Below are positions 1,922 through 58,902 of a DNA stretch of 64,000 nucleotides, one piece after another. Every line of letters begins with the position of its first letter. Position 1 is the first letter of the stretch. Location: positions 19,841 to 83,840 of the forward strand of contig JBHLRA010000001.1 in NCBI GenBank assembly GCA_048883045.1, in the 5' to 3' direction. The notes beneath the pieces are model-generated. The model searched no databases, was not told where the DNA came from, and was given only the letters and a program-made list of their open reading frames with translations. The stretch is from Candidatus Thorarchaeota archaeon (GTDB lineage: Archaea > Asgardarchaeota > Lokiarchaeia > Sigyniarchaeales > SOKP01). The position numbers and the translations under genes were made by a program.

Positions 1922-1982
1922 GCGTTCTTTTAAACTAAGAAGAAGCCTGAAATTGTCTATTAGCGGCGTTCTTTTAAACTAA
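1922..1982. repeat. 17-bp perfect direct repeat GCGTTCTTTTAAACTAA (1922-1938 and 1966-1982)
   Basis: Second copy encodes the C-terminal codons of the SSB-like gene; first copy lies in the downstream spacer, so the gene 3' end is partially duplicated. Confidence 0.7.
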
Positions 1983-2979
1983 TCCGATTTTTCCTTTTCA
2001 ATTTGGTTTGCAAAATCGCACACTCTTTCCATATCTTCTCTTCACAGCTTTCACATTCTAATTTCTCATCACAATCTGCGCCGAACTTATGACCATTGGG
2101 GCAGTCAGGGGGTTCCTTTGATCTATTATTCTCCAAAGCTTTATTATAAGCCTTTTCCTTCTCATCAGTTCCGGAACCGTCAGTTATTTGCTCAACTCCA
2201 TCTTTAAAATTTTTGATCTCTTTATTCTCTTTCTCATCTTCTTCATCATTACCTGGAATAACATAAAAGGCATTCCTTACCTCTTCATAAGAAGGAATTA
2301 TGATCATTGCATCCAAGGGAAAGACTTTGTCCAAGATGCTTTCTGGATAGGGTTTATCTCTGTCTTCAAAGGTAAAAGTCTTATATTTGAAATAATCTCT
2401 TTTACCAAATTTGTGAGTCTTGGCTTTGAATTTTACTGAACGGCCATTACTTAGGGAGGAAAATATGATTTGTTCTTCCTTTTCCTCGAAATCTTCCAGC
2501 CTATCCAAAAGCCCATCTCTTTCAAAATAGGCATAGCTGGCGATGAATATCTTGATTGTATCAGGTTCATCTTCCTCGATTACATTATAAATTGCTTTTC
2601 TGGATGGAAGCAATTCTTGTATATCATCGTTCTTCCAGTCTACTCCTGCCTTAAGCCTTGATTCTCTTTCCTCGCATATAGGGCAGGGCTTGTGGAAAGT
2701 TCTTTCCAAACAAATAAAAGCATCATCATTAGGACCTACACCTTGGTGAACCCAGATGTCACATATATAATCTGGATCTCCTTTAGCTATACCTTGGGGA
2801 TGATTTTTTGTGGAGACTATATATGGAAGAATATCAATCAAATTGAAGCCTTCAGAAGGTTTATAAAATTTAACATCTTCATGGCCTTCAAGATTAAGAA
2901 AGCCTTTCCCCCCACTTTTCCCTTTGTTGTCAACATTGTCTTTGGTTCTTTTCCCCAATTTTTCATCTAAATTGCTCAT
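1960..2979 (-). CDS. T4 gp32-like single-stranded DNA-binding protein
   Basis: 339 aa. VKFYKPSEGFNLIDILPY resembles the gp32 N-terminal core. FICLERTFHKPCPICEE is a His/Cys zinc site like the gp32 CPVCQ motif. Acidic region DEEDEKENKE; sits next to the recombinase. Confidence 0.6.
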   Translation of the reverse strand: MSNLDEKLGKRTKDNVDNKGKSGGKGFLNLEGHEDVKFYKPSEGFNLIDILPYIVSTKNHPQGIAKGDPDYICDIWVHQGVGPNDDAFICLERTFHKPCPICEERESRLKAGVDWKNDDIQELLPSRKAIYNVIEEDEPDTIKIFIASYAYFERDGLLDRLEDFEEKEEQIIFSSLSNGRSVKFKAKTHKFGKRDYFKYKTFTFEDRDKPYPESILDKVFPLDAMIIIPSYEEVRNAFYVIPGNDEEDEKENKEIKNFKDGVEQITDGSGTDEKEKAYNKALENNRSKEPPDCPNGHKFGADCDEKLECESCEEKIWKECAILQTKLKRKNRISLKERR

Positions 2980-4240: not shown

Positions 4241-4306
4241 ATAGTTGCCTCCTCTAATTTCTATCTATTAACATTCGATCTAAAGATTTCCTAAATTTTT
4301 GTTCTG

Positions 4307-5185
4307 TCATTTTAGTCCTAGATTACTCAATACTTTGTTGAAAAATACTGGGTCACTCCAAGACATATTAAGGGTGTTTGCTCTTATAGGATGGATTCTT
4401 TTATTGTATATATCTGAATATAAAAAATAAGGCAATTTGTCAAAAAATAAAATTTTCTTTTTACCATTTTCCATTTCAAATCTATAAGAATAATCTTGTA
4501 TATGATCTGCGATAGATGAATTGATATTCCAATCAAATATTGATAATTTATTTGTTTCCTGTATTGGATAAGCCAAATCACAAGTAAGCGGAAAATAAGT
4601 ATTTACAAATTCTCTTATATAAGACATATCTGCCAAATTATATAATTTCCCAACTTTTCTTTTCTCTTCTATTATATTTTTGTGATAATTTTTAAAATCA
4701 TCATTTTTTCTTAATTCATAAATCATAGAACACAGCATCTCTAATTTTCTTATACTATTTACATAAGTTACACATCCGCTTATACCATTAATAATATAGT
4801 ATAAATTTGATAATCTAATTTCTGACAAGTCTCTACATATTATTGTGTCGGAATCAAAATACCAACAAGATTTTATTCTTTTTTTAGCCATAATTTCTCT
4901 TAATCTAGGCCAACGCATTATATTGAAATGGTGTTTAGGATATGCCCACTTAGGAGCAGATCCTATGTGAGCATAATTGTCTTTTAAATCTTTAAAATTA
5001 CTTCCTTTCCCATTATAATCCTCATAATAATCAAATATAGCCCCGGATTGTATGGCTATATCTTTATTTGAATCATCCCCGAATAGGAATATATTTGTAT
5101 CAGGGTTGAAAACCTTTGCACATTTCAAGGTATGTTCTAGATACCAGCTGTGCTCAAAATGCATAAATATTATAGGAGCTTTCAT
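4307..5185 (-). CDS. putative glycosyltransferase (DxD type)
   Basis: 292 aa; WYFDSDTIICRDL is DxD-like; embedded among glycosyltransferase/methyltransferase genes; family not recognised. Confidence 0.35.
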   Translation of the reverse strand: MKAPIIFMHFEHSWYLEHTLKCAKVFNPDTNIFLFGDDSNKDIAIQSGAIFDYYEDYNGKGSNFKDLKDNYAHIGSAPKWAYPKHHFNIMRWPRLREIMAKKRIKSCWYFDSDTIICRDLSEIRLSNLYYIINGISGCVTYVNSIRKLEMLCSMIYELRKNDDFKNYHKNIIEEKRKVGKLYNLADMSYIREFVNTYFPLTCDLAYPIQETNKLSIFDWNINSSIADHIQDYSYRFEMENGKKKILFFDKLPYFLYSDIYNKRIHPIRANTLNMSWSDPVFFNKVLSNLGLK

Positions 5186-15331: not shown

Positions 15332-17740
15332 CTAATATATCAAAATATCAGAAGTATCTATAACATCAGCGCTCTTTCTTAATTTCCTGAACATGCAAGC
15401 ATAGCGTACTTCGTCGCAATTCGAAACAATTATATTTCCTTGAACTGCGAATAGATGGCTCCCTTTTGTAGTTAAACAATAAACATCTGACTTTCCTATA
15501 CAATCAATTGATTTTATTTTTTTTCCTATTTTCTCCGCTGAGTTTTGCTCCGCAATCTCTTGAACAAGTTTTAGTCTTTCCATATTTGATTGTTTCGAAT
15601 TCTTTGCCACATATTGAGCATATTCTTGTTTCATGATCAAGTTTATTACTTCTTCTATATTTTGATTTGCAAACATTGGAGCAAAATTTTTGGAATGGAA
15701 ACCCTTCAAATTCATTCTTACATTGTAAACAATTTTTAATTTTTCTTGCAAGTATTTTATCTTTGCAATTTGATTGATATTGGCGTTTATGCCATTCTTT
15801 GCCTTCATCGCTCTTATGCCATTCTGCTGCCTTAATCCTAGCTTTGCTGCTTGCATTGAAAAAAGCTGAATTATCTTCTCTAAGATTAATATGTAATTTA
15901 GAATGTTGGCTTTGTGACATTGCTTCCAAATTTTCGATATTATTATTTGATCTATCAAAATCTTTGTGGTGGATGTGAAATCCATTTGGTATATTCCCAT
16001 TATGAAATTTCCAAACTGTTCTATGTAAAATATTCCCATTTTTTTTTCTAAAATATCTTCCTTGTAAGTAATATCTAATTCCATTAAATTCTTGTATTGT
16101 TTCACTAATGATAATGGTTTGCATTCATCCTCTCCTTTTAAAGAATAACAATAATCTCCTATTTTTAAATATTTAGCTTGTATTAGATTATAATTTATAT
16201 CTAAAAATTTATGATCTAATGTAGATTCAACTTTTGTTCCATCCTCAAACGATATGCGTATTAAATCTTGATTTCTTCTAGTCATTCTGCAATTATAATA
16301 ATCTGTATAAAAATTTCCAACTGTTATTATTTTCCCTTCAGTTCCGACTAAATTTTTTATGGGCTTAAATCCCTCTAAAGTTTTAACCAATGTGTTAGGG
16401 GATAAACATATATGATCTTCCTGATGAGGGGCTATATCTTCTAAATTTTTAGCATCTCTTTGCAGATAGGGTATAGTCCTTTTAAAATCATAACACCATT
16501 CCATTACCAGCAATCCTGGCCCAAATTCTTTATTTCCTATCAATCTATTACGGACTTGAGCCCATCCTGGAACTCTGCTTTTATCAGATTCAACAAACAA
16601 ATCTCCACCCATTTGCTTATGGATACTTTCTCCTCCTCTTTCCTCAAATATCTGATTATCTGCTGGTCCCTTTCTTATATTAAGACTGCCCCATTGTTTT
16701 TCTCTTTCTCTTATTTCTTTTCCTATCTGTTCATTAGACATGTAAAGACCGGATATTTTCCCGTTATCTCTTTTACATCCATACCATTCTGCAAATCTTA
16801 TCAAGGTTCCCCTTGGGTAGTATAAGCCATTTGGAGCTACATTCCCATCGCTTTCACACCACCAGCCAACTGAAAAAGGACTTGCACTGCCCCAATCAAA
16901 ACTTCTAAAACAAAACCAATCTGAAGGAGGCACAAAACATTGAGAGATTGGGATAACATTTTTTATTTCATTCCAAGCATCAGCAAAAAACGAACCAATC
17001 TTTACATCCCAAGAACCAAATATCCAAGATTTCTTAAGTTCTTCATCATTTAAACCAAACAAAGTCTTACGATAAGCTTTACCTTGATTATCCATAAATG
17101 GTATATTTTCCAACATATTACCAAAGATTGCTATTCTCTTTTCTCCCTGATTATTCTCAATAGGAACTCCCCAGCGCCCAACTGGATCAACAAAATATCC
17201 TTTGACCTCTGCTCTTCCTACACCCCAAGTATTGGCAGTTGATCTTATTCTGGGAAAGACTGATATTGGAGAAGATGCAAAGTTACAGCTCTTCATGAGC
17301 TCATAAGCCTCTAGATTAGGCCATTCACAAAGCTCATCCCAACCTATCCAGGGGAGAGCATGGCCATGAAAATTTCCATAATCTTTTTCATTATCCATAT
17401 AGGCAAATTTTAAAGTTTCTCCGTCTGGAAAATACCAAGTGCCTTCACTTTTGTTATATTCAGCTTTAAGAAATATTTTTTTATATAGCGTTTGGCTTTC
17501 AAATACTAAATCTCGGAGTTGGGGAAAAGTTCGCCTAAATAAAACACCTCTCCAAATAGGTCCATAACCTTTTCCTACATCTTGTAAAAAATCAACAAGT
17601 AAACTAGCACTTTTGCCAGCCTTTCTTGTTCCGAAATATAATGCCTCTTTAAATGGACAAGATAAAAAAAGAGATTGGGAGCCTGGATTAGGGGTCCACG
17701 CTAATGTATTTTTTTTATTATTTTGTTTTAAGATGTCCAT
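15332..17740 (-). CDS. terL: terminase large subunit precursor containing an intein
   Basis: Walker A FGTRKAGKSAS, Walker B IGWDEL. Nuclease motif EDHI|...|CDEVRYACM is split by a 330-codon insert. Confidence 0.9.
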   Translation of the reverse strand: MDILKQNNKKNTLAWTPNPGSQSLFLSCPFKEALYFGTRKAGKSASLLVDFLQDVGKGYGPIWRGVLFRRTFPQLRDLVFESQTLYKKIFLKAEYNKSEGTWYFPDGETLKFAYMDNEKDYGNFHGHALPWIGWDELCEWPNLEAYELMKSCNFASSPISVFPRIRSTANTWGVGRAEVKGYFVDPVGRWGVPIENNQGEKRIAIFGNMLENIPFMDNQGKAYRKTLFGLNDEELKKSWIFGSWDVKIGSFFADAWNEIKNVIPISQCFVPPSDWFCFRSFDWGSASPFSVGWWCESDGNVAPNGLYYPRGTLIRFAEWYGCKRDNGKISGLYMSNEQIGKEIREREKQWGSLNIRKGPADNQIFEERGGESIHKQMGGDLFVESDKSRVPGWAQVRNRLIGNKEFGPGLLVMEWCYDFKRTIPYLQRDAKNLEDIAPHQEDHICLSPNTLVKTLEGFKPIKNLVGTEGKIITVGNFYTDYYNCRMTRRNQDLIRISFEDGTKVESTLDHKFLDINYNLIQAKYLKIGDYCYSLKGEDECKPLSLVKQYKNLMELDITYKEDILEKKMGIFYIEQFGNFIMGIYQMDFTSTTKILIDQIIISKIWKQCHKANILNYILILEKIIQLFSMQAAKLGLRQQNGIRAMKAKNGINANINQIAKIKYLQEKLKIVYNVRMNLKGFHSKNFAPMFANQNIEEVINLIMKQEYAQYVAKNSKQSNMERLKLVQEIAEQNSAEKIGKKIKSIDCIGKSDVYCLTTKGSHLFAVQGNIIVSNCDEVRYACMFRKLRKSADVIDTSDILIY
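15419..16408 (-). mobile_element. intein in the TerL nuclease motif (codons 445-774)
   Basis: Block A CLSPNTLVKTLEG (Cys1 at 16406-16408), block B TLDHKFL, blocks F/G VYCLTTKGSHLFAVQGNIIVSN, +1 Cys at 15416-15418. Confidence 0.8.
15504..16124 (-). CDS. HNH homing endonuclease nested in the intein in a different reading frame
   Basis: 206 aa; HIHHKDFDRSNNNIENLEAMSQSQHSKLH; zinc ribbons CLQCKNEF..FCSNVC and CSICGKEF..CSRDC. Own SD AAAGGAGAGG 4 nt before the ATG. Frame offset 2 relative to TerL. Confidence 0.8.
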   Translation of the reverse strand: MQTIIISETIQEFNGIRYYLQGRYFRKKNGNILHRTVWKFHNGNIPNGFHIHHKDFDRSNNNIENLEAMSQSQHSKLHINLREDNSAFFNASSKARIKAAEWHKSDEGKEWHKRQYQSNCKDKILARKIKNCLQCKNEFEGFPFQKFCSNVCKSKYRRSNKLDHETRICSICGKEFETIKYGKTKTCSRDCGAKLSGENRKKNKIN

Positions 17741-50441: not shown

Positions 50442-50591
50442 TGATCAGAAAGATAAAATATGTGCAAATTCAAAATCCAAAAAGCAAGAATTGAGTTAAA
50501 ATAGATAAAGATGAGGCATCATCTTGGGATATAAAGAAAAACTTTGGAAAAATATTAAAAAAAATAATTAGATAAGAAAAAGGGGGATTAA

Positions 50592-50996
50592 ATGGCAATC
50601 AAAGAGCTTTATGATTATTTGCCTACTGTTTCAGCTGATGTTGATCAAACTTTGAGTATAAATCCCCAATCCGTCCTTACCGAAATTATAACTAAAAATG
50701 ATCAAGTTCAAGAGGGCGACGATAGAAGCGAAGAGAGAGCAGAATTTACAGGAGATTTTATTGCTTATATTGTCATTAGATATGATATTCTTGATGATGA
50801 AGATTCCGGGACTACTATTGATTTTTTTTACAATTCTTCTAAGGGAAATGGTCTTATAAACTCTTTCAAATTTGCCCATCCCGATAATCATACCTATGTA
50901 GTTCGATTTGATACCGATATGACTAGGCTAATGAATCCAACAAATTATAGTAATAAAAATATAAGATTAAAAGTATTAGGAAGGATAGCCGATTAA
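50592..50996 (+). CDS. distal-tail (DUF2460/GTA g12-like) domain protein, short paralog
   Basis: FKFAHPDNHTYVVRFDTDMTRL resembles the VRFDTD end of DUF2460. Paralogous to the C-terminus of the next gene. Confidence 0.45.
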   Translation: MAIKELYDYLPTVSADVDQTLSINPQSVLTEIITKNDQVQEGDDRSEERAEFTGDFIAYIVIRYDILDDEDSGTTIDFFYNSSKGNGLINSFKFAHPDNHTYVVRFDTDMTRLMNPTNYSNKNIRLKVLGRIAD

Positions 50997-52498
50997 TGGC
51001 CGTAACTAAAACTTTAATTTGGAATAATAATATAAGTTTTCATGGACATAGGAAACATTTTGGAGTAACTAGCGGAGGCCGTTTATGGTCAGTCGCTTAT
51101 GTGAGTAATATTATTAAAGCTAAATATTCTGATGATGATGGATCAAATTGGAGTTCAGAAGAAACCGTTCATTTAGCTAATATTGGATTCCCTGCTATAT
51201 TTATAGATGGAAATGATGCTTTACATGTTGTGGGTTCTAATGGAAATTATGTATCTTCTCCTAGATGGAGAAGAAGGAATGGTTCATGGTTAGATGTTGA
51301 AACTATAAAATATGATGTCATGGCTTATAACAATTATGGTGATATAGTTGTTACTCAAGGACATCAACCATTTTGTTTTTGGGCTGATGTTGATGTTCCC
51401 GGCGATCGTATATGTAAATTAGAAAGATCAGGTGATTCTTGGCAAGCAGAAGTTACAACATCTTTTACAAGTGGTTTTACATGTTGGGGAGTATGTGCTT
51501 GTATAGATGATTTTGATTTAATGCATATAATTTGGTTAGAAGTTGAAAAAGTTGATACAAATCATAGAAAAGTAATGCACGCAACTTTTAATGGTTCTTC
51601 TTTCTCTTCCATTACAACTTTAGATGAAGTAACTAATGGTTCTTTACAAGAGCCTATAATAAGATATGTTGAAAGTGGTAAATGTTGGGCTATGTGGGCC
51701 AGGGATGGAGTTGGGGATGAGACTTCTTATGATCAAGTAAGATATAGAATATATGTAAATGGAATTGGTTGGTCTGGCGGAGTGCAAAATTTAACAAATA
51801 ATGCTAGAAATCATCAAGGTTATGATGTTATTTATTGTAATGGTTTTGTTACAGCTGTTTATGGGGAATATGGATCTTATGCAAGCGCTCCAACTAAATA
51901 TAATTTAGTATATAAAGCTTATAATACCTCTATTTCTGAATGGGGGGATGCAACCCAAGTAACGGAAGAATCAGATGATATTGTAGCTCCTAATTGTACT
52001 ATAATAGGAAATAATCTTCATCTTAGTTTCTGGTTAGATAATGGAGCGAATTATGATATTTATCATGGAACTTTTGTCCCTATCGGTCCAGTTCAAGAAA
52101 AAGAAATTTATGATTATTTGTCTACTGTTTCAGCTGATGTTGATGTTACTTTATCTTTAGATCCTCAAGTTGTTATTCAGGAAGTTGGTGGAAAAGGAGA
52201 TATTGTCCATTTGGCAGATGATGAATCAGAAGAAAGGGTTGGATATAGTTCGGATTTCAAATTTTATATAATTATAAGATATGATTTATTAGATGAATCT
52301 GATGCCGGAACTTTATTGGATATTTGGGCGGATTCTAGCAAAGCTAATGGAAGGGTGAATAGTTTCAAATTTGCTCATCCCGATAATCACACCTATGTAG
52401 TTCGATTTGATACCGATATGACCCGGTTAATGTCTCCAACTTATTATACGATAAAAAATATCAGATTGAAAGTTTTAGGAAGGATAGCTGATTCATAA
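50996..52498 (+). CDS. tail protein: BNR/Asp-box propeller-like N-domain + Dit-like C-domain
   Basis: YSDDDGSNWSSE is an Asp-box (S-x-D-x-G-x-x-W). C-terminal 132 aa are paralogous to 50592-50996. Confidence 0.5.
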   Translation: MAVTKTLIWNNNISFHGHRKHFGVTSGGRLWSVAYVSNIIKAKYSDDDGSNWSSEETVHLANIGFPAIFIDGNDALHVVGSNGNYVSSPRWRRRNGSWLDVETIKYDVMAYNNYGDIVVTQGHQPFCFWADVDVPGDRICKLERSGDSWQAEVTTSFTSGFTCWGVCACIDDFDLMHIIWLEVEKVDTNHRKVMHATFNGSSFSSITTLDEVTNGSLQEPIIRYVESGKCWAMWARDGVGDETSYDQVRYRIYVNGIGWSGGVQNLTNNARNHQGYDVIYCNGFVTAVYGEYGSYASAPTKYNLVYKAYNTSISEWGDATQVTEESDDIVAPNCTIIGNNLHLSFWLDNGANYDIYHGTFVPIGPVQEKEIYDYLSTVSADVDVTLSLDPQVVIQEVGGKGDIVHLADDESEERVGYSSDFKFYIIIRYDLLDESDAGTLLDIWADSSKANGRVNSFKFAHPDNHTYVVRFDTDMTRLMSPTYYTIKNIRLKVLGRIADS

Positions 52499-55400
52499 TG
52501 TTATCTTTGAATGCAACACAGCAAGCTGTTGTGGCGTCTGCCAAAAAGCCAGAAATTTCTTGGCTTTTTGAAATAGATACCGATAATGATGGCGCGCCTG
52601 AATATAGATATTCTACGAAAGCTAAATCTTTTGGAGGAAATAGCTATATATTCAAGATTTTAAAATTTACTCCTATTGGAATGCAAAAAAATTCATCTGA
52701 ATATGGATTAATTGCTCCTAATAAATTCACTTTTACTATAGATAATCATGACGACGCTTTAACTCCTTCTGATTTTAATGGGGCTGCCATAAAAGTTAGA
52801 CTTATAGTAGATGATGGGACTAATGGCGATACCGAGATTGCTTCTTGGGAATTTGAAGTTATAAATTATGAAGGAATTTATAAGGAAATAACTTTGGTGT
52901 GCCGGGATTGGCTACAAAAATATTTAGATGGAGATTATCCAAATACAAGCCTTATAAAAGATCTTTGGTATAGTGATGATCCTAAAGATGACAACGTATG
53001 TGTCCCTATTATGTATGGTACGCCTTATTTTCCAATAAGAAGTGCTTATATTACAGATCAAAGATATTATATTCTAGGACCTTCTTCTCCGACTTATACA
53101 ATAACAAAAATAAGATCTCCCCGTGATTGGCCTTCTAAATCTGAATGGAGTTCTGGGTCTTATACTTTTACTCAATCCAACAAAACAGGATCAGATGGCA
53201 ACACTTATAAAGCTGTCCAATTTATTATAGCAGATTCAGACAATGATGGAAGCGCAGATGCTAATGGTTTATTTGTAAATGGAGAAGAATTTTTGGATGT
53301 GCCTTGTAAATATACCAGAAGTGATACGAATTCTACAACAAATCCAGCCGATATAATAGAAGCAATATTGCTGGACTTTGGGATTCCTAGCGCCAAAATA
53401 GATTCTACAACTCAGAATTCTGCGGCCTCTTCTTTTACGAGTTGGGGATTGACTTGGAATATGTCTCTTTGGTATAAAATGTCTAGGAAGAAGTTATTGG
53501 CCAAGCTTTTAGCTATGTGTCATTTGGAGCTTATAATTAGAGACAAAATTTATTTCAAAATTCATTCAAAAACTTCTCAAGGAACTATAGATAACAGCTA
53601 TATTTTGAGAAAAAAGGAGCGAGGAAAAGGAACTTTTTCTATAAAAAATTTATCAGTCAAAAATCAAAGTAAAGATTCTGGATATGGTGCTTTTCAAGAA
53701 TCAGATGAGCCTATTGATAAACTTCAAAAGTTCTTGGTTCCGGCTAAGGCTTCGACTAATGATATATCTAATGATGTCATAGAATGTGATTATATACAAG
53801 ATTCACAAGATGCCCAAAAGATAACTCAATTAGCTTTGCAAAGGAAGCTTTTGGCCTTTCAAGCTATCTCCTTTTTATCCAAAGGAACAGCTCTTGCTTA
53901 CGAAGTGGATGATGTAATAACGATTGCTAATGATGCCAATTATGGAGCAGAGGGGACCACATATGATGTTTTAATAGATAAAATAATTATAAATAAAGAT
54001 CTTTCTATAAAATTCGAATGTACTCGATTTAGTGATTCTTTGGATGATTGGGGGGATTTAAGCCCAAGCGCTATAACTATTGTTTCAGATGATTCAAGCT
54101 CTTTATATTCTCCGGTGGTTTGTGGGCCAGATACAACTGGCATAACAGGGTCTCAAGTTCCAAATGCCCTTCCGGGTAGATTAAGAATTGGAGATGATTC
54201 GAATTATATAGTTATTGATCCAGACGATAGCGGAGATAGATATGTTGCTAGCGGAAAAACTGATTTTACTACTACGGGCAATGGCTTTATAATTGGTATT
54301 GATCACAGTGATAGCGATAAGGTTAAGCTATATTTGGGTAATACAACTGATTATATGTATTGGGATGGATCTAATCTTGTAATATCAGGAAATATTACTG
54401 CTACAACAGGAAATATCGGCGGTTGGACAATAACTTCTACAACTTTGCATTCTAGTAACAATATAGTCCTCGATAGTGGTAATAAAGCCATATATATAAA
54501 TGATACTACTTATGGCAACGAAGGAATTCAATTAGAATATAATAATGGCTATCCTAGAGTATATGTAGGAGATGGTGGAAATAATTATTTCAAATATGAT
54601 GGCACAAAAATTCAATGGAAAGGCGCTAATACAGAACTAGATGGCTCTGGAAATTTAACTTGTACAGGCGGAACTATAGGAGGTTGGACTATAGGGGCCA
54701 CAACTATTTCTTCCACAAATATTACTATAGATAGTGATAATGAGCGGATAAGATCAACAAATTATGTTTCTGGCTCTGCTGGAGCTGGATTTACTTTAGA
54801 ACCTGAATTATTAGAAGTTGGCAATATTGCTTGTCGAGGGATCATAAGGACGGCTGTATTTCAAAAAGATATAATATCAGCTATAGGTGGTAATCTTCTT
54901 GTTTCTAAAGGTTCGGATGTTTTAGACGCCGATATGAATTCATTAGATAGCTCTAATCTAAGTGTTGAAGGAAATGAAAGTTTTGCTGTTGGAGATATTT
55001 TAAGAATAAAAGATGGGATAGACGATGAATGGTTAGAAATTACTGACAATACTTATGATCCTATATATACTGTAATTAGAGATTTAGCAGGAAGTTATGT
55101 ATCAGATTATAATCCTGAATGGGGGAAAGGTGCTACAGTCGTAAATTATGGCGCTAATGGAGATGGGCTTATACATATGACCGCCTCTGAAGCCAATGCT
55201 CCATTTATATCTGTTCTAACTCATGCAGGCGCTCCTTATACAACTATTACTACTAGACTTAGAATAGGGAATTTAAATGGATTTTTAGGGTATTCTAGTG
55301 ACAAGTATGGTATTGCTATAGGAGAGACTAATAAATATTTGAAATATGACCCAACTGGAGGATTAGTTATCCAAGGGACTGTAAATATTATTGGATCTGC

Positions 55401-57009
55401 TACCCTTGGGGATGGTTCTAATTATTCTGGAACAATAACCCTTTCTATTGCAGATGGGCAAGGAGATTGTTACATTGCTGCTGGAAAATCTGATTTTACT
55501 AACACTGATAATGGATTTATTCTAGGTGTTGACGATAGCGATAGTGATAAGGTTAAATTTTATCTTGGCAATTCTACAAATTATTTTAATTGGGATGGAA
55601 CTAATATTATAATAAATGTTGCCTCTACAGACGCCATAACTGTTAAATCTGGCGGAGATATAGTTTTGGAAGCTACTGCGGCTAATCCTGGCCGTATAAA
55701 ATTTGTAGGCACTACTTATGAGACTCAGTTTGGAAGCTTTACTGCTGATGGTAGTGCTGTTAATTTTATGGCCCAAACTGATAATGCAGTCACCCTTTCG
55801 GCCTATAATGGGAGCAATTATTTTTCTCAAATACAATGGTATTCTAGAAGCCAATGTTCAGTTGGTTGTATAGAGGATTCTAATAATCAAGCCACAATAG
55901 CTTGTGATAGATCGAGTGCTATGGCTCAAGCTTATTTTTATATGAGAGATGGCGGGACAACTAAGACTTTGGAGATGAGATATGACAGTGTGGGAGGTAG
56001 CCAATATTTTGCTCCTAATGATAATGAAGAATGGGATTTGGGGAATTCTACCTATTACTGGAAAGATATATATGCAAGAAATCTTTATTTAAAGGATTCT
56101 GATGCCCATCCAATTATACAAATAACTGCTGCTCACGCAACTGATTATGATCCTCAAATAAAGTTTGCCACCGATGCAACCCCGACTGTTAAATTTAGTA
56201 TGGGAGTGGATGGGTCTGATGATAAATTCAAAATCTATTCCGGGGATGGTATTGGAGGCACTACAGAATTTGTTATAAGTTCATCAGGAACCCTTTATTT
56301 GGGGGATGATTCTGGGGGTAATATGACCGGGGCCGGTATAGTTATTAATCAAGGCACTTCAGATGATTTTATAATGTGCTTTAAAAGCACAGATATAGCT
56401 CATGGATATACGGCTGTTATTGAAGAGGATTCTTATGGATTATTTTCTAAATATAGCAGCACTAATGGAGGCCTTGATATATATGGGATTTGCGAAGCTG
56501 GAGCTACCACTGGATTGGCTATAACTGGATTTGGAGGAACGGCCCCGGATGAAACAACTGCTTCAGGTTCAGATGGAATAGTTGAGGTCAACGCTTGGTT
56601 AGACGGAGGAGATTATGCGGCAGATTATCCTAGTGGGGATGATAATGTGTTTGTTGTTAAATTGGGGAAAGCAACTGCTTGTTTTATAGTTAAAGCAGAT
56701 GGGGATATATATTATAATGGAGCAGATCAGGGGTCTTTTGATAGTTTTGAAGATGCTTTGGCTTGCCGAGATTTATCTTATAATTTATCTAATCAATTGG
56801 TAAAAGTCCTCAAATACAACAAAAAAAAATTAAATGATATGGGCGTTATAGCTCATACTATTTGTGAAAATGGTAAGGAGGATATTTTCGTATCAACTAA
56901 AGGAATGACTATGCTTCAATTAGGGGCTATAGGTGAGCTTTATAAAGTTTGTAATTATTTGTGCTCTAGATTAGGAATAACCTATGAAGAGGCCAGAAAG
57001 GAAGTGTAA
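52498..57009 (+). CDS. tail hub / host-specificity fibre protein
   Basis: 1503 aa after the Dit-like genes. Internal duplicated module GKTDFTTTGNGFIIGIDHSDSDKVKLYLGNTTDYMYWDGSN / GKSDFTNTDNGFILGVDDSDSDKVKFYLGNSTNYFNWDGTN. Confidence 0.7.
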   Translation: MLSLNATQQAVVASAKKPEISWLFEIDTDNDGAPEYRYSTKAKSFGGNSYIFKILKFTPIGMQKNSSEYGLIAPNKFTFTIDNHDDALTPSDFNGAAIKVRLIVDDGTNGDTEIASWEFEVINYEGIYKEITLVCRDWLQKYLDGDYPNTSLIKDLWYSDDPKDDNVCVPIMYGTPYFPIRSAYITDQRYYILGPSSPTYTITKIRSPRDWPSKSEWSSGSYTFTQSNKTGSDGNTYKAVQFIIADSDNDGSADANGLFVNGEEFLDVPCKYTRSDTNSTTNPADIIEAILLDFGIPSAKIDSTTQNSAASSFTSWGLTWNMSLWYKMSRKKLLAKLLAMCHLELIIRDKIYFKIHSKTSQGTIDNSYILRKKERGKGTFSIKNLSVKNQSKDSGYGAFQESDEPIDKLQKFLVPAKASTNDISNDVIECDYIQDSQDAQKITQLALQRKLLAFQAISFLSKGTALAYEVDDVITIANDANYGAEGTTYDVLIDKIIINKDLSIKFECTRFSDSLDDWGDLSPSAITIVSDDSSSLYSPVVCGPDTTGITGSQVPNALPGRLRIGDDSNYIVIDPDDSGDRYVASGKTDFTTTGNGFIIGIDHSDSDKVKLYLGNTTDYMYWDGSNLVISGNITATTGNIGGWTITSTTLHSSNNIVLDSGNKAIYINDTTYGNEGIQLEYNNGYPRVYVGDGGNNYFKYDGTKIQWKGANTELDGSGNLTCTGGTIGGWTIGATTISSTNITIDSDNERIRSTNYVSGSAGAGFTLEPELLEVGNIACRGIIRTAVFQKDIISAIGGNLLVSKGSDVLDADMNSLDSSNLSVEGNESFAVGDILRIKDGIDDEWLEITDNTYDPIYTVIRDLAGSYVSDYNPEWGKGATVVNYGANGDGLIHMTASEANAPFISVLTHAGAPYTTITTRLRIGNLNGFLGYSSDKYGIAIGETNKYLKYDPTGGLVIQGTVNIIGSATLGDGSNYSGTITLSIADGQGDCYIAAGKSDFTNTDNGFILGVDDSDSDKVKFYLGNSTNYFNWDGTNIIINVASTDAITVKSGGDIVLEATAANPGRIKFVGTTYETQFGSFTADGSAVNFMAQTDNAVTLSAYNGSNYFSQIQWYSRSQCSVGCIEDSNNQATIACDRSSAMAQAYFYMRDGGTTKTLEMRYDSVGGSQYFAPNDNEEWDLGNSTYYWKDIYARNLYLKDSDAHPIIQITAAHATDYDPQIKFATDATPTVKFSMGVDGSDDKFKIYSGDGIGGTTEFVISSSGTLYLGDDSGGNMTGAGIVINQGTSDDFIMCFKSTDIAHGYTAVIEEDSYGLFSKYSSTNGGLDIYGICEAGATTGLAITGFGGTAPDETTASGSDGIVEVNAWLDGGDYAADYPSGDDNVFVVKLGKATACFIVKADGDIYYNGADQGSFDSFEDALACRDLSYNLSNQLVKVLKYNKKKLNDMGVIAHTICENGKEDIFVSTKGMTMLQLGAIGELYKVCNYLCSRLGITYEEARKEV

Positions 57010-58482: not shown

Positions 58483-58902
58483 ATGGGTTTAGGATCTTTT
58501 CTAAGCAAATTAGTTGGTTCAGGAGTAGGGTCTACGGTTGATAGCATAGGCAATACTATTAATAAATTTATAGAAACTCCGGATGAAAAAAGGGCTGCAG
58601 AGATTGTTATGGCCAAACTTCAGCAAAATGCTGATAAATGGCAAATGGAAATAAATAAAATCGAAGCAGGACACCGGTCAATCTTTATAGCTGGATGGAG
58701 GCCGTTCATTGGCTGGGTTTGCGGAATAGGGCTTTGTTATTATTTTATTTTAAGCCCATTTATAGCTACGATAGTAGCCGTTTGTGGTTTTGAAGGGGCT
58801 TTGCCCCAAATAGCGATAGGCCCTTTAGTTAGCATTCTTTTAGCTATGCTTGGAATGTCTGCTACAAGGACTTATGAAAAATTTCACCATTTAACTAAAT
58901 AA
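58483..58902 (+). CDS. holin, GTA-type 3-TM family
   Basis: HRSIFIAGWRPFIGWVCGIGLCYYFIL plus two further TM segments and ..TRTYEKF.. C-terminus resemble GTA_holin_3TM. Confidence 0.7.
   Translation: MGLGSFLSKLVGSGVGSTVDSIGNTINKFIETPDEKRAAEIVMAKLQQNADKWQMEINKIEAGHRSIFIAGWRPFIGWVCGIGLCYYFILSPFIATIVAVCGFEGALPQIAIGPLVSILLAMLGMSATRTYEKFHHLTK

Follow-up and report, generated by a model that had tools for sequence, protein, structure and literature searches.

A duplicated Dit-like domain, plain and propeller-bearing, in a viral tail module

Introduction

Why would a tailed virus carry the same small tail domain twice in immediate succession, once on its own and once at the end of a larger protein? 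The question is raised by a stretch of 64,000 nt (here "the window", W) from the Candidatus Thorarchaeota archaeon assembly GCA_048883045.1, contig JBHLRA010000001.1, positions 19,841 to 83,840 of the forward strand. Two adjacent open reading frames (ORFs) of its tail module, S (50592-50996) and L (50996-52498), share a domain: the whole of S resembles the C-terminal domain of L, termed LC below. An initial annotation of this DNA had called the domain Dit-like, after the distal tail (Dit) proteins of phages, noted that the two copies have near-identical ends around a divergent core, and proposed gene conversion at the ends, diversification of the middle and a recombinational toggle that would excise the N-terminal module of L.

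From the comparisons described here, the paralogy of S and L is real and its explanation appears mostly ordinary, a combination of family-wide constraint and a little gene conversion. The paralogy, the mosaic, the propeller fold of the N-terminal module and conversion at the ends all stand; the diversifying middle and the toggle find no support, and the name Dit-like survives weakly. On balance we consider it probable that duplication, decoration of one copy and short-tract conversion produced the pair, with both copies in a tail-tip ring and L as the anchor of a glycan module, the placement in the virion being a working model that we infer. The comparative pattern, in which a plain Dit-like protein recurs together with a decorated partner, seems more interesting than the interpretation from which the analysis started.

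Two copies of one domain

Positions 50601-50993 of S align with 52100-52492 of L without a gap, codon for codon, at an offset of 1,499 nt. Identity is 274 of 393 nt (69.7%) and 87 of 131 aa (66%), which bears out the proposed paralogy with the C-terminal part of L, as well as the coordinates and the spacing of about 1.5 kb given for the two copies. In a sliding window along the repeat, identity lies at 0.90-0.97 towards either end and drops to 0.43-0.60 in between, a true mosaic of near-identical ends and divergent core. The first 45 nt differ at 3 positions; a hand alignment had correctly reported near-identity here, with one difference too many (4). Towards the 3' end lies a 60-nt stretch, the C-box (50864-50923 versus 52363-52422), in which 2 of 60 positions differ, exactly as first reported. 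The core between them (50646-50858), described earlier as some 200 nt of much greater divergence, differs at 96 of 213 nt and is thus 55% identical. The longest exact runs shared by the copies measure 32, 23, 14, 14, 14 and 12 nt.

This heterogeneity, which a sliding-window check had been proposed to distinguish from uniform divergence, extends to synonymous sites. Synonymous divergence (pS) between S and LC is lowest at the N-end (0.10), followed by the C-box (0.31), the C-tail (0.54) and the core (0.67). For amino acids identical in both copies, the codons were compared with the expectation from codon usage: the same codon is used at 12 of 13 positions of the N-end (7.3 expected), 16 of 21 of the C-box (12.0 expected) and 18 of 35 of the core (18.9 expected), and the two conserved tracts differ from the rest (Fisher's test, p=0.011). 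Because same-codon use in the core equals the codon-usage expectation, its synonymous sites can be taken as saturated.

Family constraint and probable gene conversion

At the amino-acid level, the mosaic largely reflects a constraint profile that appears to run through the whole family, since the columns identical in S and LC are those conserved outside the clade formed by W and its relatives (L001-L005, L060 and L061). In 126 family members from outside this clade, identical columns are more conserved than differing ones (0.58 versus 0.39, Mann-Whitney p=7.6e-6). The blocks conserved family-wide are the YDY N-end, SFKF.H..GHTYVVRF and LKVLGRI.D.

Could purifying selection on shared structural segments then be the whole story, with no gene conversion? 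The conservation of the same segments across the family speaks for it, as do the small number of informative sites and the fact that other genomes have no within-genome (diagonal) excess of identity at the N-end. Against it, synonymous differences are depleted in the same tracts, with the core at its saturation expectation, and the W genome carries marks of its own. At 0.93 in the N-end and 0.91 in the C-box, its own S and LC are more alike than any other pair. Among pairs without the L copy of W, identity in these tracts is 0.60-0.85, and this L copy compared with S of L001 and of L002 at the N-end gives 0.89 and 0.91. The N-end of LC in W is nearer to S of other genomes (0.83-0.86) than to their LC (0.71-0.76), so that it groups with S sequences, and it reverts to the LC type by about codon 16. 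In the C-box, AAT (Asn) in both W copies replaces, by a two-nucleotide change, the GGN (Gly) of all 10 orthologues in L001-L005, the set used for comparing tract states, and a synonymous CGA in both stands where all 10 have AGR. A selection-only account is improbable in our judgement.

Short-tract gene conversion in the W lineage is instead supported at both the N-end and the C-box, because a single event accounts for these shared states, whereas without it the same changes would have had to occur in each copy separately. The signs expected of conversion are all present: pS is lower in the tracts than in the core, derived states are common to the W pair and absent from its orthologues, and the N-end tract is incongruent with its flanks. 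The N-end tract would extend over no more than 50610-50645, copied to 52109-52144, and the C-box tract would lie within 50864-50923 and 52363-52422. Conversion at the ends, as first suggested, is thus upheld for the W genome by its synonymous sites, by the derived codons common to its two copies and by an LC N-end that resembles S. The tracts offer a small but clean example of concerted evolution within a viral structural module.

Two further observations touch these tracts. The RecA-like and gp32-like proteins encoded in the window are a possible in-house machinery for conversion between the paralogues. In L061, a two-base run of N (2599-2600) falls exactly at the N-end tract of the Dit-like domain of L, where the codons for STVSADVD are missing; the L gene is split there into calls of 386 aa and 114 aa, probably a scaffolding artefact at a repeated tract.

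An old core and two retained genes

The middle of the repeat is not diversifying. Of the 33 sites at which S-type and LC-type differ in the other genomes, S of W keeps the S-type at 32 and LC of W keeps the LC-type at 31, and LC cores are 71-92% identical among orthologues, with whole L proteins reaching only 45-62%. A hypervariable core was rejected on these figures. Judged from orthologous sequences, the core is an old, fixed, paralogue-specific difference.

The initial annotation had further read the direct repeats as a recombinational toggle, in which a crossover between them would excise 1,499 bp (the S core and the propeller) and leave a chimeric short gene, with the carbohydrate-binding module off. 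Rare deletions of this size are mechanistically possible, because the conversion tracts imply that recombination intermediates between the copies do form and because the virus has genes for a RecA-like recombinase and for a single-strand DNA-binding protein of the gp32 type. The product would moreover resemble the layout of tape measure protein (TMP), S and hub that is functional in distant single-copy relatives. Such a deletion would be one-way, however, and hence a loss rather than a switch. Every clade genome whose sequence extends far enough retains both genes, so that a comparison of relatives for alleles with and without the module finds only the two-gene state in the clade. A check for chimeras, covering 171 retrieved protein sequences, yielded no short protein with an L-type core or C-tail, and neither these sequences nor the relatives include a deletion or chimeric form. 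Exact identity runs reach only 32 and 23 nt, and cores that have long been kept paralogue-specific imply that both genes are needed. A toggle is therefore very unlikely; the junctions that a 1,499-bp deletion would leave are given in Table 1.

The propeller of L

What does the second copy carry? Residues 1-366 of L are modelled by AlphaFold2 (AF2) as an all-beta propeller with a predicted local distance difference test (pLDDT) score of about 85-93. Foldseek places this model against a putative neuraminidase (4irt, E 4.7e-11), the GH145 enzyme 5mul (BT3686), PLL lectins and bacterial sialidases (several at ~1e-8) in the Protein Data Bank (PDB). These matches span E 5e-11 to 1e-7, with a target-normalised template modelling (TM) score of about 0.7 for the best and sequence identity of about 10-14%. 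Among the viral proteins of BFVD, the propeller is closest to large, uncharacterised proteins of Caudovirales and to proteins with a sialidase domain. A beta-propeller of the sialidase/lectin type can thus be predicted with confidence, with a putative role in binding or cleavage, and the earlier description of the N-terminal domain as BNR-like is right at the level of the fold.

The module shares with BNR/sialidases (GH33), GH145 and PLL-type lectins the propeller fold and one canonical Asp-box, which is accompanied by degenerate G-x-W motifs roughly every 50-55 aa, as read by eye from an alignment of seven propeller homologues (A2). It departs from GH33 sialidases in its low sequence identity, in giving no Pfam BNR match and in having no invariant Arg among the 39 invariant columns of A2. 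A canonical sialidase was rejected on the last point: with no arginine shared by all seven homologues there is no arginine triad, and an active site of the classical sialidase kind is improbable.

A propeller homologue of 390 aa and 44% identity is encoded at L006 739-1911, where it has no Dit-like domain. Since it stands alone there in a different gene neighbourhood, the propeller appears to be an independently mobile module.

Identity of the S domain

An initial search with S returned 17 short homologues, and an exhaustive profile search enlarged the family to about 402 representatives at 50% clustering, mostly of 130-145 aa. Wherever the locus was inspected (W, L002, L007, L009, L010, L048 and L051), the S-family gene lies directly after the tape measure gene and before a hub-like gene. 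S and L have no Pfam or NCBIfam match, the curated Dit models PF05939, PF05709 and PF09343 included. Below the cut-off of 30.4 bits, the N-terminal part of DUF2460 is matched by members P0017-19 (E 0.004-0.01, 16-17 bits), and DUF2460 also by the long paralogue of L051 (E 2.8e-5, 24.1 bits); all four matches are colinear and all are sub-threshold. A "virion structural protein" group, phrog_384, is matched by 10 of the 127 family sequences in alignment A3. Aligned by hhalign with nine lambda gpM sequences (A4), A3 scores E 5e-4 at 32% probability over 81 colinear columns, with DD.SEER set opposite GDGY.QR and G..SFKW.HP opposite G..SFLWTPP; a comparison with one gpM sequence gave E 0.14. The name Dit-like is therefore the best reading of gene position and weak similarity and is not an established assignment: the position after the tape measure gene fits it well, and the similarity stays sub-threshold (DUF2460 E 2.8e-5 to 0.01; gpM E 5e-4, 32%).

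Alternatively, the 131-aa domain might be a generic docking or adaptor domain of the tail tip, and L, rather than a ring subunit, a peripheral receptor-binding protein attached to S itself or at the site where S attaches. This would sit well with a domain that has no significant match to any Dit family or structure and is fused to many different modules at either end. It fits less well with a position between tape measure and hub-like genes that is invariant in the inspected loci, with a size and a predicted strand-helix-strand order colinear with lambda gpM, whose motifs hhalign aligns, or with the repeated colinear DUF2460 matches of four members. We regard a docking domain as unlikely and keep the Dit-like reading below.

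The family is invisible to current annotation, with no Pfam or NCBIfam match and only weak ones in PHROG, and a tblastn search of 50,697 cultured phage genomes found no homologue of L or of the family consensus. A name for it would bring annotation to a conserved tail gene found in hundreds of lineages of uncultured viruses.

Recurrent pairs of plain and decorated copies

The S-L pair is present in all seven clade relatives, with the contigs of L003 and L005 ending within S and an assembly gap interrupting L in L061. The order TMP, S, L, hub is seen in W and L002, where the contig reaches that far, and a hub-like gene follows downstream in L001, L002, L060 and L061. In the more distant L007, L009 and L010, the TMP gene is followed by a single S and then by a large tip protein. 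Loci fetched for a comparison of copy number comprise 41 with a single plain copy and 17 with two, and in all of the latter one copy is short and the other forms the C-terminus of a protein of 500-733 aa; L060 and L061 are paired likewise. Because the S and LC groups of the clade are sisters in a neighbour-joining tree and are nested within the single-copy diversity, the duplication can be placed at the base of the clade.

An older pair of paralogues, about 37% identical, is present in a second and distantly related set of lineages (L046-L055). Their N-terminal modules differ, one being Beta_helix/rhamnogalacturonidase-like and another DNRLRE-like, and the module is borne by paralogue type B in L046-L050 and by type A in L051-L055. 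Gene order differs as well (TMP, S, a 407-aa protein, long paralogue in L046-L050 versus TMP, a 192-aa protein, long paralogue, S, tip in L051-L055). By all appearances, plain and decorated pairs arose independently in other lineages, with other N-terminal modules.

Further representatives of the family have N-terminal extensions, one with a Laminin_G_3 match just below the cut-off, or C-terminal extensions of up to 577 aa. One protein of 273 aa (P0051) is a tandem fusion of two S-like domains (residues 1-130 or so and 148-260) and may be a natural pseudo-dimer of the ring protein.

A proposed model of the tail tip

In the reading we prefer, S would be a ring protein of the distal tail, small and similar to Dit and lambda gpM, with the tape measure protein on one side and the tail-tip hub on the other. 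Its gene would have been duplicated in the ancestor of the clade, and the second copy would have gained an N-terminal sialidase/lectin-like propeller via a short Pro-rich linker, giving rise to L. Both genes would then have been retained, in translational coupling to each other and to the hub gene, as their cores turned copy-specific and came to be conserved among orthologues, with the family-conserved segments remaining common to both. In the W lineage, gene conversion over about 20-60 nt would have made the copies alike again at the N-end (S to L) and in the C-box. Both proteins would be built into the tail tip, in one mixed 3+3 ring or in two stacked rings, where the Dit-like domain of L would serve as an anchor showing three or six glycan-binding or glycan-cleaving propellers beside the hub for recognition of the host surface. 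The shared conserved segments would correspond to interfaces with ring, tube and hub, and the divergent cores to non-equivalent contacts.

TAATG overlaps of stop and start at both junctions, from S to L and from L to the tip gene, suggest that S, L and the hub gene are translationally coupled, which would suit a fixed stoichiometry.

Several results weigh against this picture. S and L reach the threshold of no curated Dit family, and PDB sequence searches with the S-family profiles A1, A3 and A5 gave no match. AF2 reached a pLDDT of 50 for S (from an 18-sequence alignment) and below 40 for LC, so that these models are unusable, and Foldseek on the S model returned no significant match, the model being too poor for this to be meaningful. 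The case for conversion depends on a handful of sites in short tracts; the pair in L004 also has 4 unique states common to both of its copies, and parallel selection could be the source of the shared Gly-to-Asn change, though not of the synonymous CGA.

How would two kinds of subunit share a ring? An alternating 3+3 arrangement is slightly favoured, because no decorated copy occurs without a plain one and two S domains are found fused in tandem. More tentatively, and with a good deal of doubt, the ring could be a genetically encoded hetero-hexamer of three plain and three decorated subunits. Duplication would in that case have fixed the odd/even non-equivalence, which Dits encoded by one gene reach by switching conformation where six-fold meets three-fold symmetry, and freed one N-terminus for interchangeable receptor modules (propeller, beta-helix, lectin), an arrangement that would have evolved independently in at least two lineages and would sometimes be tandem-fused.

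Known tail tips offer partial precedents. In the evolved Dits of lactic-acid-bacteria phages, the galectin-like C-terminal domain of the sole Dit harbours a carbohydrate-binding module as an insertion. The pair described here resembles them in having a glycan-recognition module on a distal tail protein and differs in that the module is N-terminal, on a second copy, with the plain copy kept; some other S-family members do bear C-terminal extensions. In T5 pb6 and T4 gp27, two tube-fold domains in one chain give a 3x2 pseudo-hexamer. The tandem fusion P0051 is comparable, whereas the two domains of S and L are on separate polypeptides and 66% identical. The resemblance to g12 of RcGTA, a member of DUF2460, lies in the sub-threshold colinear matches to that family, and W also encodes a holin of the GTA_holin_3TM family.

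Distal tail proteins made of the tail-tube fold only (lambda gpM, PyoF6) form a hexameric ring that seats trimeric hub proteins (PMC13455828). S is like lambda gpM, Phage_min_tail and the F-pyocin protein PyoF6 in its size class (~110-140 aa), in its place between tape measure and hub genes and in the colinear hhalign motifs. It is unlike them in that there is no significant match in sequence or structure, in that the family is not found in cultured phages and in that two paralogues occur, of which one bears an N-terminal propeller of 366 aa. In T5-like phages, a further trimeric ring (p140 / tail tip middle protein) lies between Dit and the tip protein (PMC13455828); with T5 pb6 and T4 gp27, it provides precedents for an additional ring and for paired tube-fold domains. 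In the Dit hexamer of RcGTA, odd and even subunits differ in conformation to bind the trimeric hub and megatron proteins, and the N- and C-termini contact the baseplate (PMC7296036). There, one gene with an inserted OB-fold domain makes both kinds of subunit; here, two paralogues could encode the odd/even non-equivalence genetically.

If the pair does build a tail-tip ring, it would represent a new route for the evolution of siphovirus adhesion devices, in which a ring protein is duplicated into a plain copy and a docking platform for swappable glycan modules. It would also parallel, at the genetic level, the conformational symmetry-breaking of RcGTA and lambda-type tips.

Gene neighbourhood and source of the virus

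Members of the structural module of W are a capsid protein resembling SPP1 gp13, a tail tube protein (Phage_tube_2), the tape measure, S, L and a 1503-aa protein, with a gene transfer agent (GTA)-type holin later on (Table 1).

Table 1. Positions in the window of the genes, domains and repeat tracts discussed
Feature	Position	Strand	Remarks
RecA-like recombinase, bacterial-type, and gp32-like single-strand DNA-binding protein	489-1535 and 1960-2979	-	RecA-like: PF00154, E 1.6e-27
Tape measure protein, 1132 aa	47043..50441	+	PHROG 973, E 8e-27; Pfam TMP_3 below cut-off; adjoins the S/L pair upstream
ORF S, stand-alone 134-aa Dit/gpM-like domain protein	50592..50996	+	Stop overlaps L start (TAATG)
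N-end tract in S	50610..50645	+	Likely donor of short gene conversion
C-box tract in S	50864..50923	+	FKFAHPDNHTYVVRFDTDMT; lineage-specific AAT (50886-50888) and CGA (50904-50906)
ORF L, 500 aa	50996..52498	+	N-terminal beta-propeller, Pro-rich linker, C-terminal S-domain copy; stop overlaps next start (TAATG)
Predicted beta-propeller module of L, aa 1-366	50996..52093	+	Sialidase/lectin-like fold (AF2, Foldseek)
Single canonical Asp-box of L, YSDDDGSNW (S-x-D-x-G-x-x-W pattern at aa 45-52)	51125..51151	+	Y44, S45, G49 and W52 invariant in homologues
LC, S-like C-terminal domain of L	52100..52495	+	Paralogous to S
N-end tract in L	52109..52144	+	Likely recipient; S-type here, L-type in other genomes; L-type ATT upstream, GTT downstream
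C-box tract in L	52363..52422	+	Same AAT (52385-52387) and CGA (52403-52405)
1503-aa tail-tip or hub-like protein	52498..57009	+	Downstream of L; overlaps L
GTA_holin_3TM holin	58483-58902		GTA-type
Predicted junction of 1,499-bp deletion, first			...AAAGAGCTTTATGATTATTTG[C/T]CTACTGTTTCAGCTGATGTTGAT|GTTACTTTATCTTTAGATCC
Predicted junction of 1,499-bp deletion, second			...CATCCCGATAATCA[T/C]ACCTATGTAGTTCGATTTGATACCGATATGAC|CCGGTTAATGTCTCC

Scans of the 1503-aa protein against Pfam, PHROG and NCBIfam gave no usable match, and a PDB sequence search gave no match. Its homologue directly follows S in single-copy relatives, and its N-terminus aligns with lambda gpL by hhalign in the expected register, at a non-significant E of 0.069. 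The protein contains an internal duplication (54130-54420 and 55345-55640 of the window, plus strand; local alignment score 231), with segments ...GKTDFTTTGNGFIIGIDHSDSDKVKLYLGNTTDYMYWDGSN from aa 586 and ...GKSDFTNTDNGFILGVDDSDSDKVKFYLGNSTNYFNWDGTN from aa 996. In L060, a 139-aa DUF7448 gene (4292-4711) stands between L and the tail-tip gene and breaks the overlap of the two, which is otherwise conserved.

Upstream of S, the 150-nt gap that follows the tape measure gene in W (50442-50591) holds no plus-strand ORF of 20 aa or more. Small ORFs of 44-70 aa, of two unrelated types, occupy the corresponding place in L001 (355-564), L004 (173-385), L002 (9442-9576) and L060 (2185-2319).

The contig is deposited as a Candidatus Thorarchaeota metagenome-assembled genome (MAG), and the source protein bears the label "MAG: Candidatus Thorarchaeota archaeon". 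The host assignment of the virus is nonetheless uncertain, because its RecA, DnaG-type primase, gp32 and GTA-type holin look bacterial or phage-like and because a scan of GTDB genome contigs with an S-family profile (A1) matched only two contigs, both from bacterial MAGs. A scan of metagenome contigs with S recovered only re-assemblies of L001. The large terminase subunit of W (Terminase_6N, 15332-17740, minus strand) appears to bear an intein (Intein_splicing, E 2.5e-9, residues 486-773).

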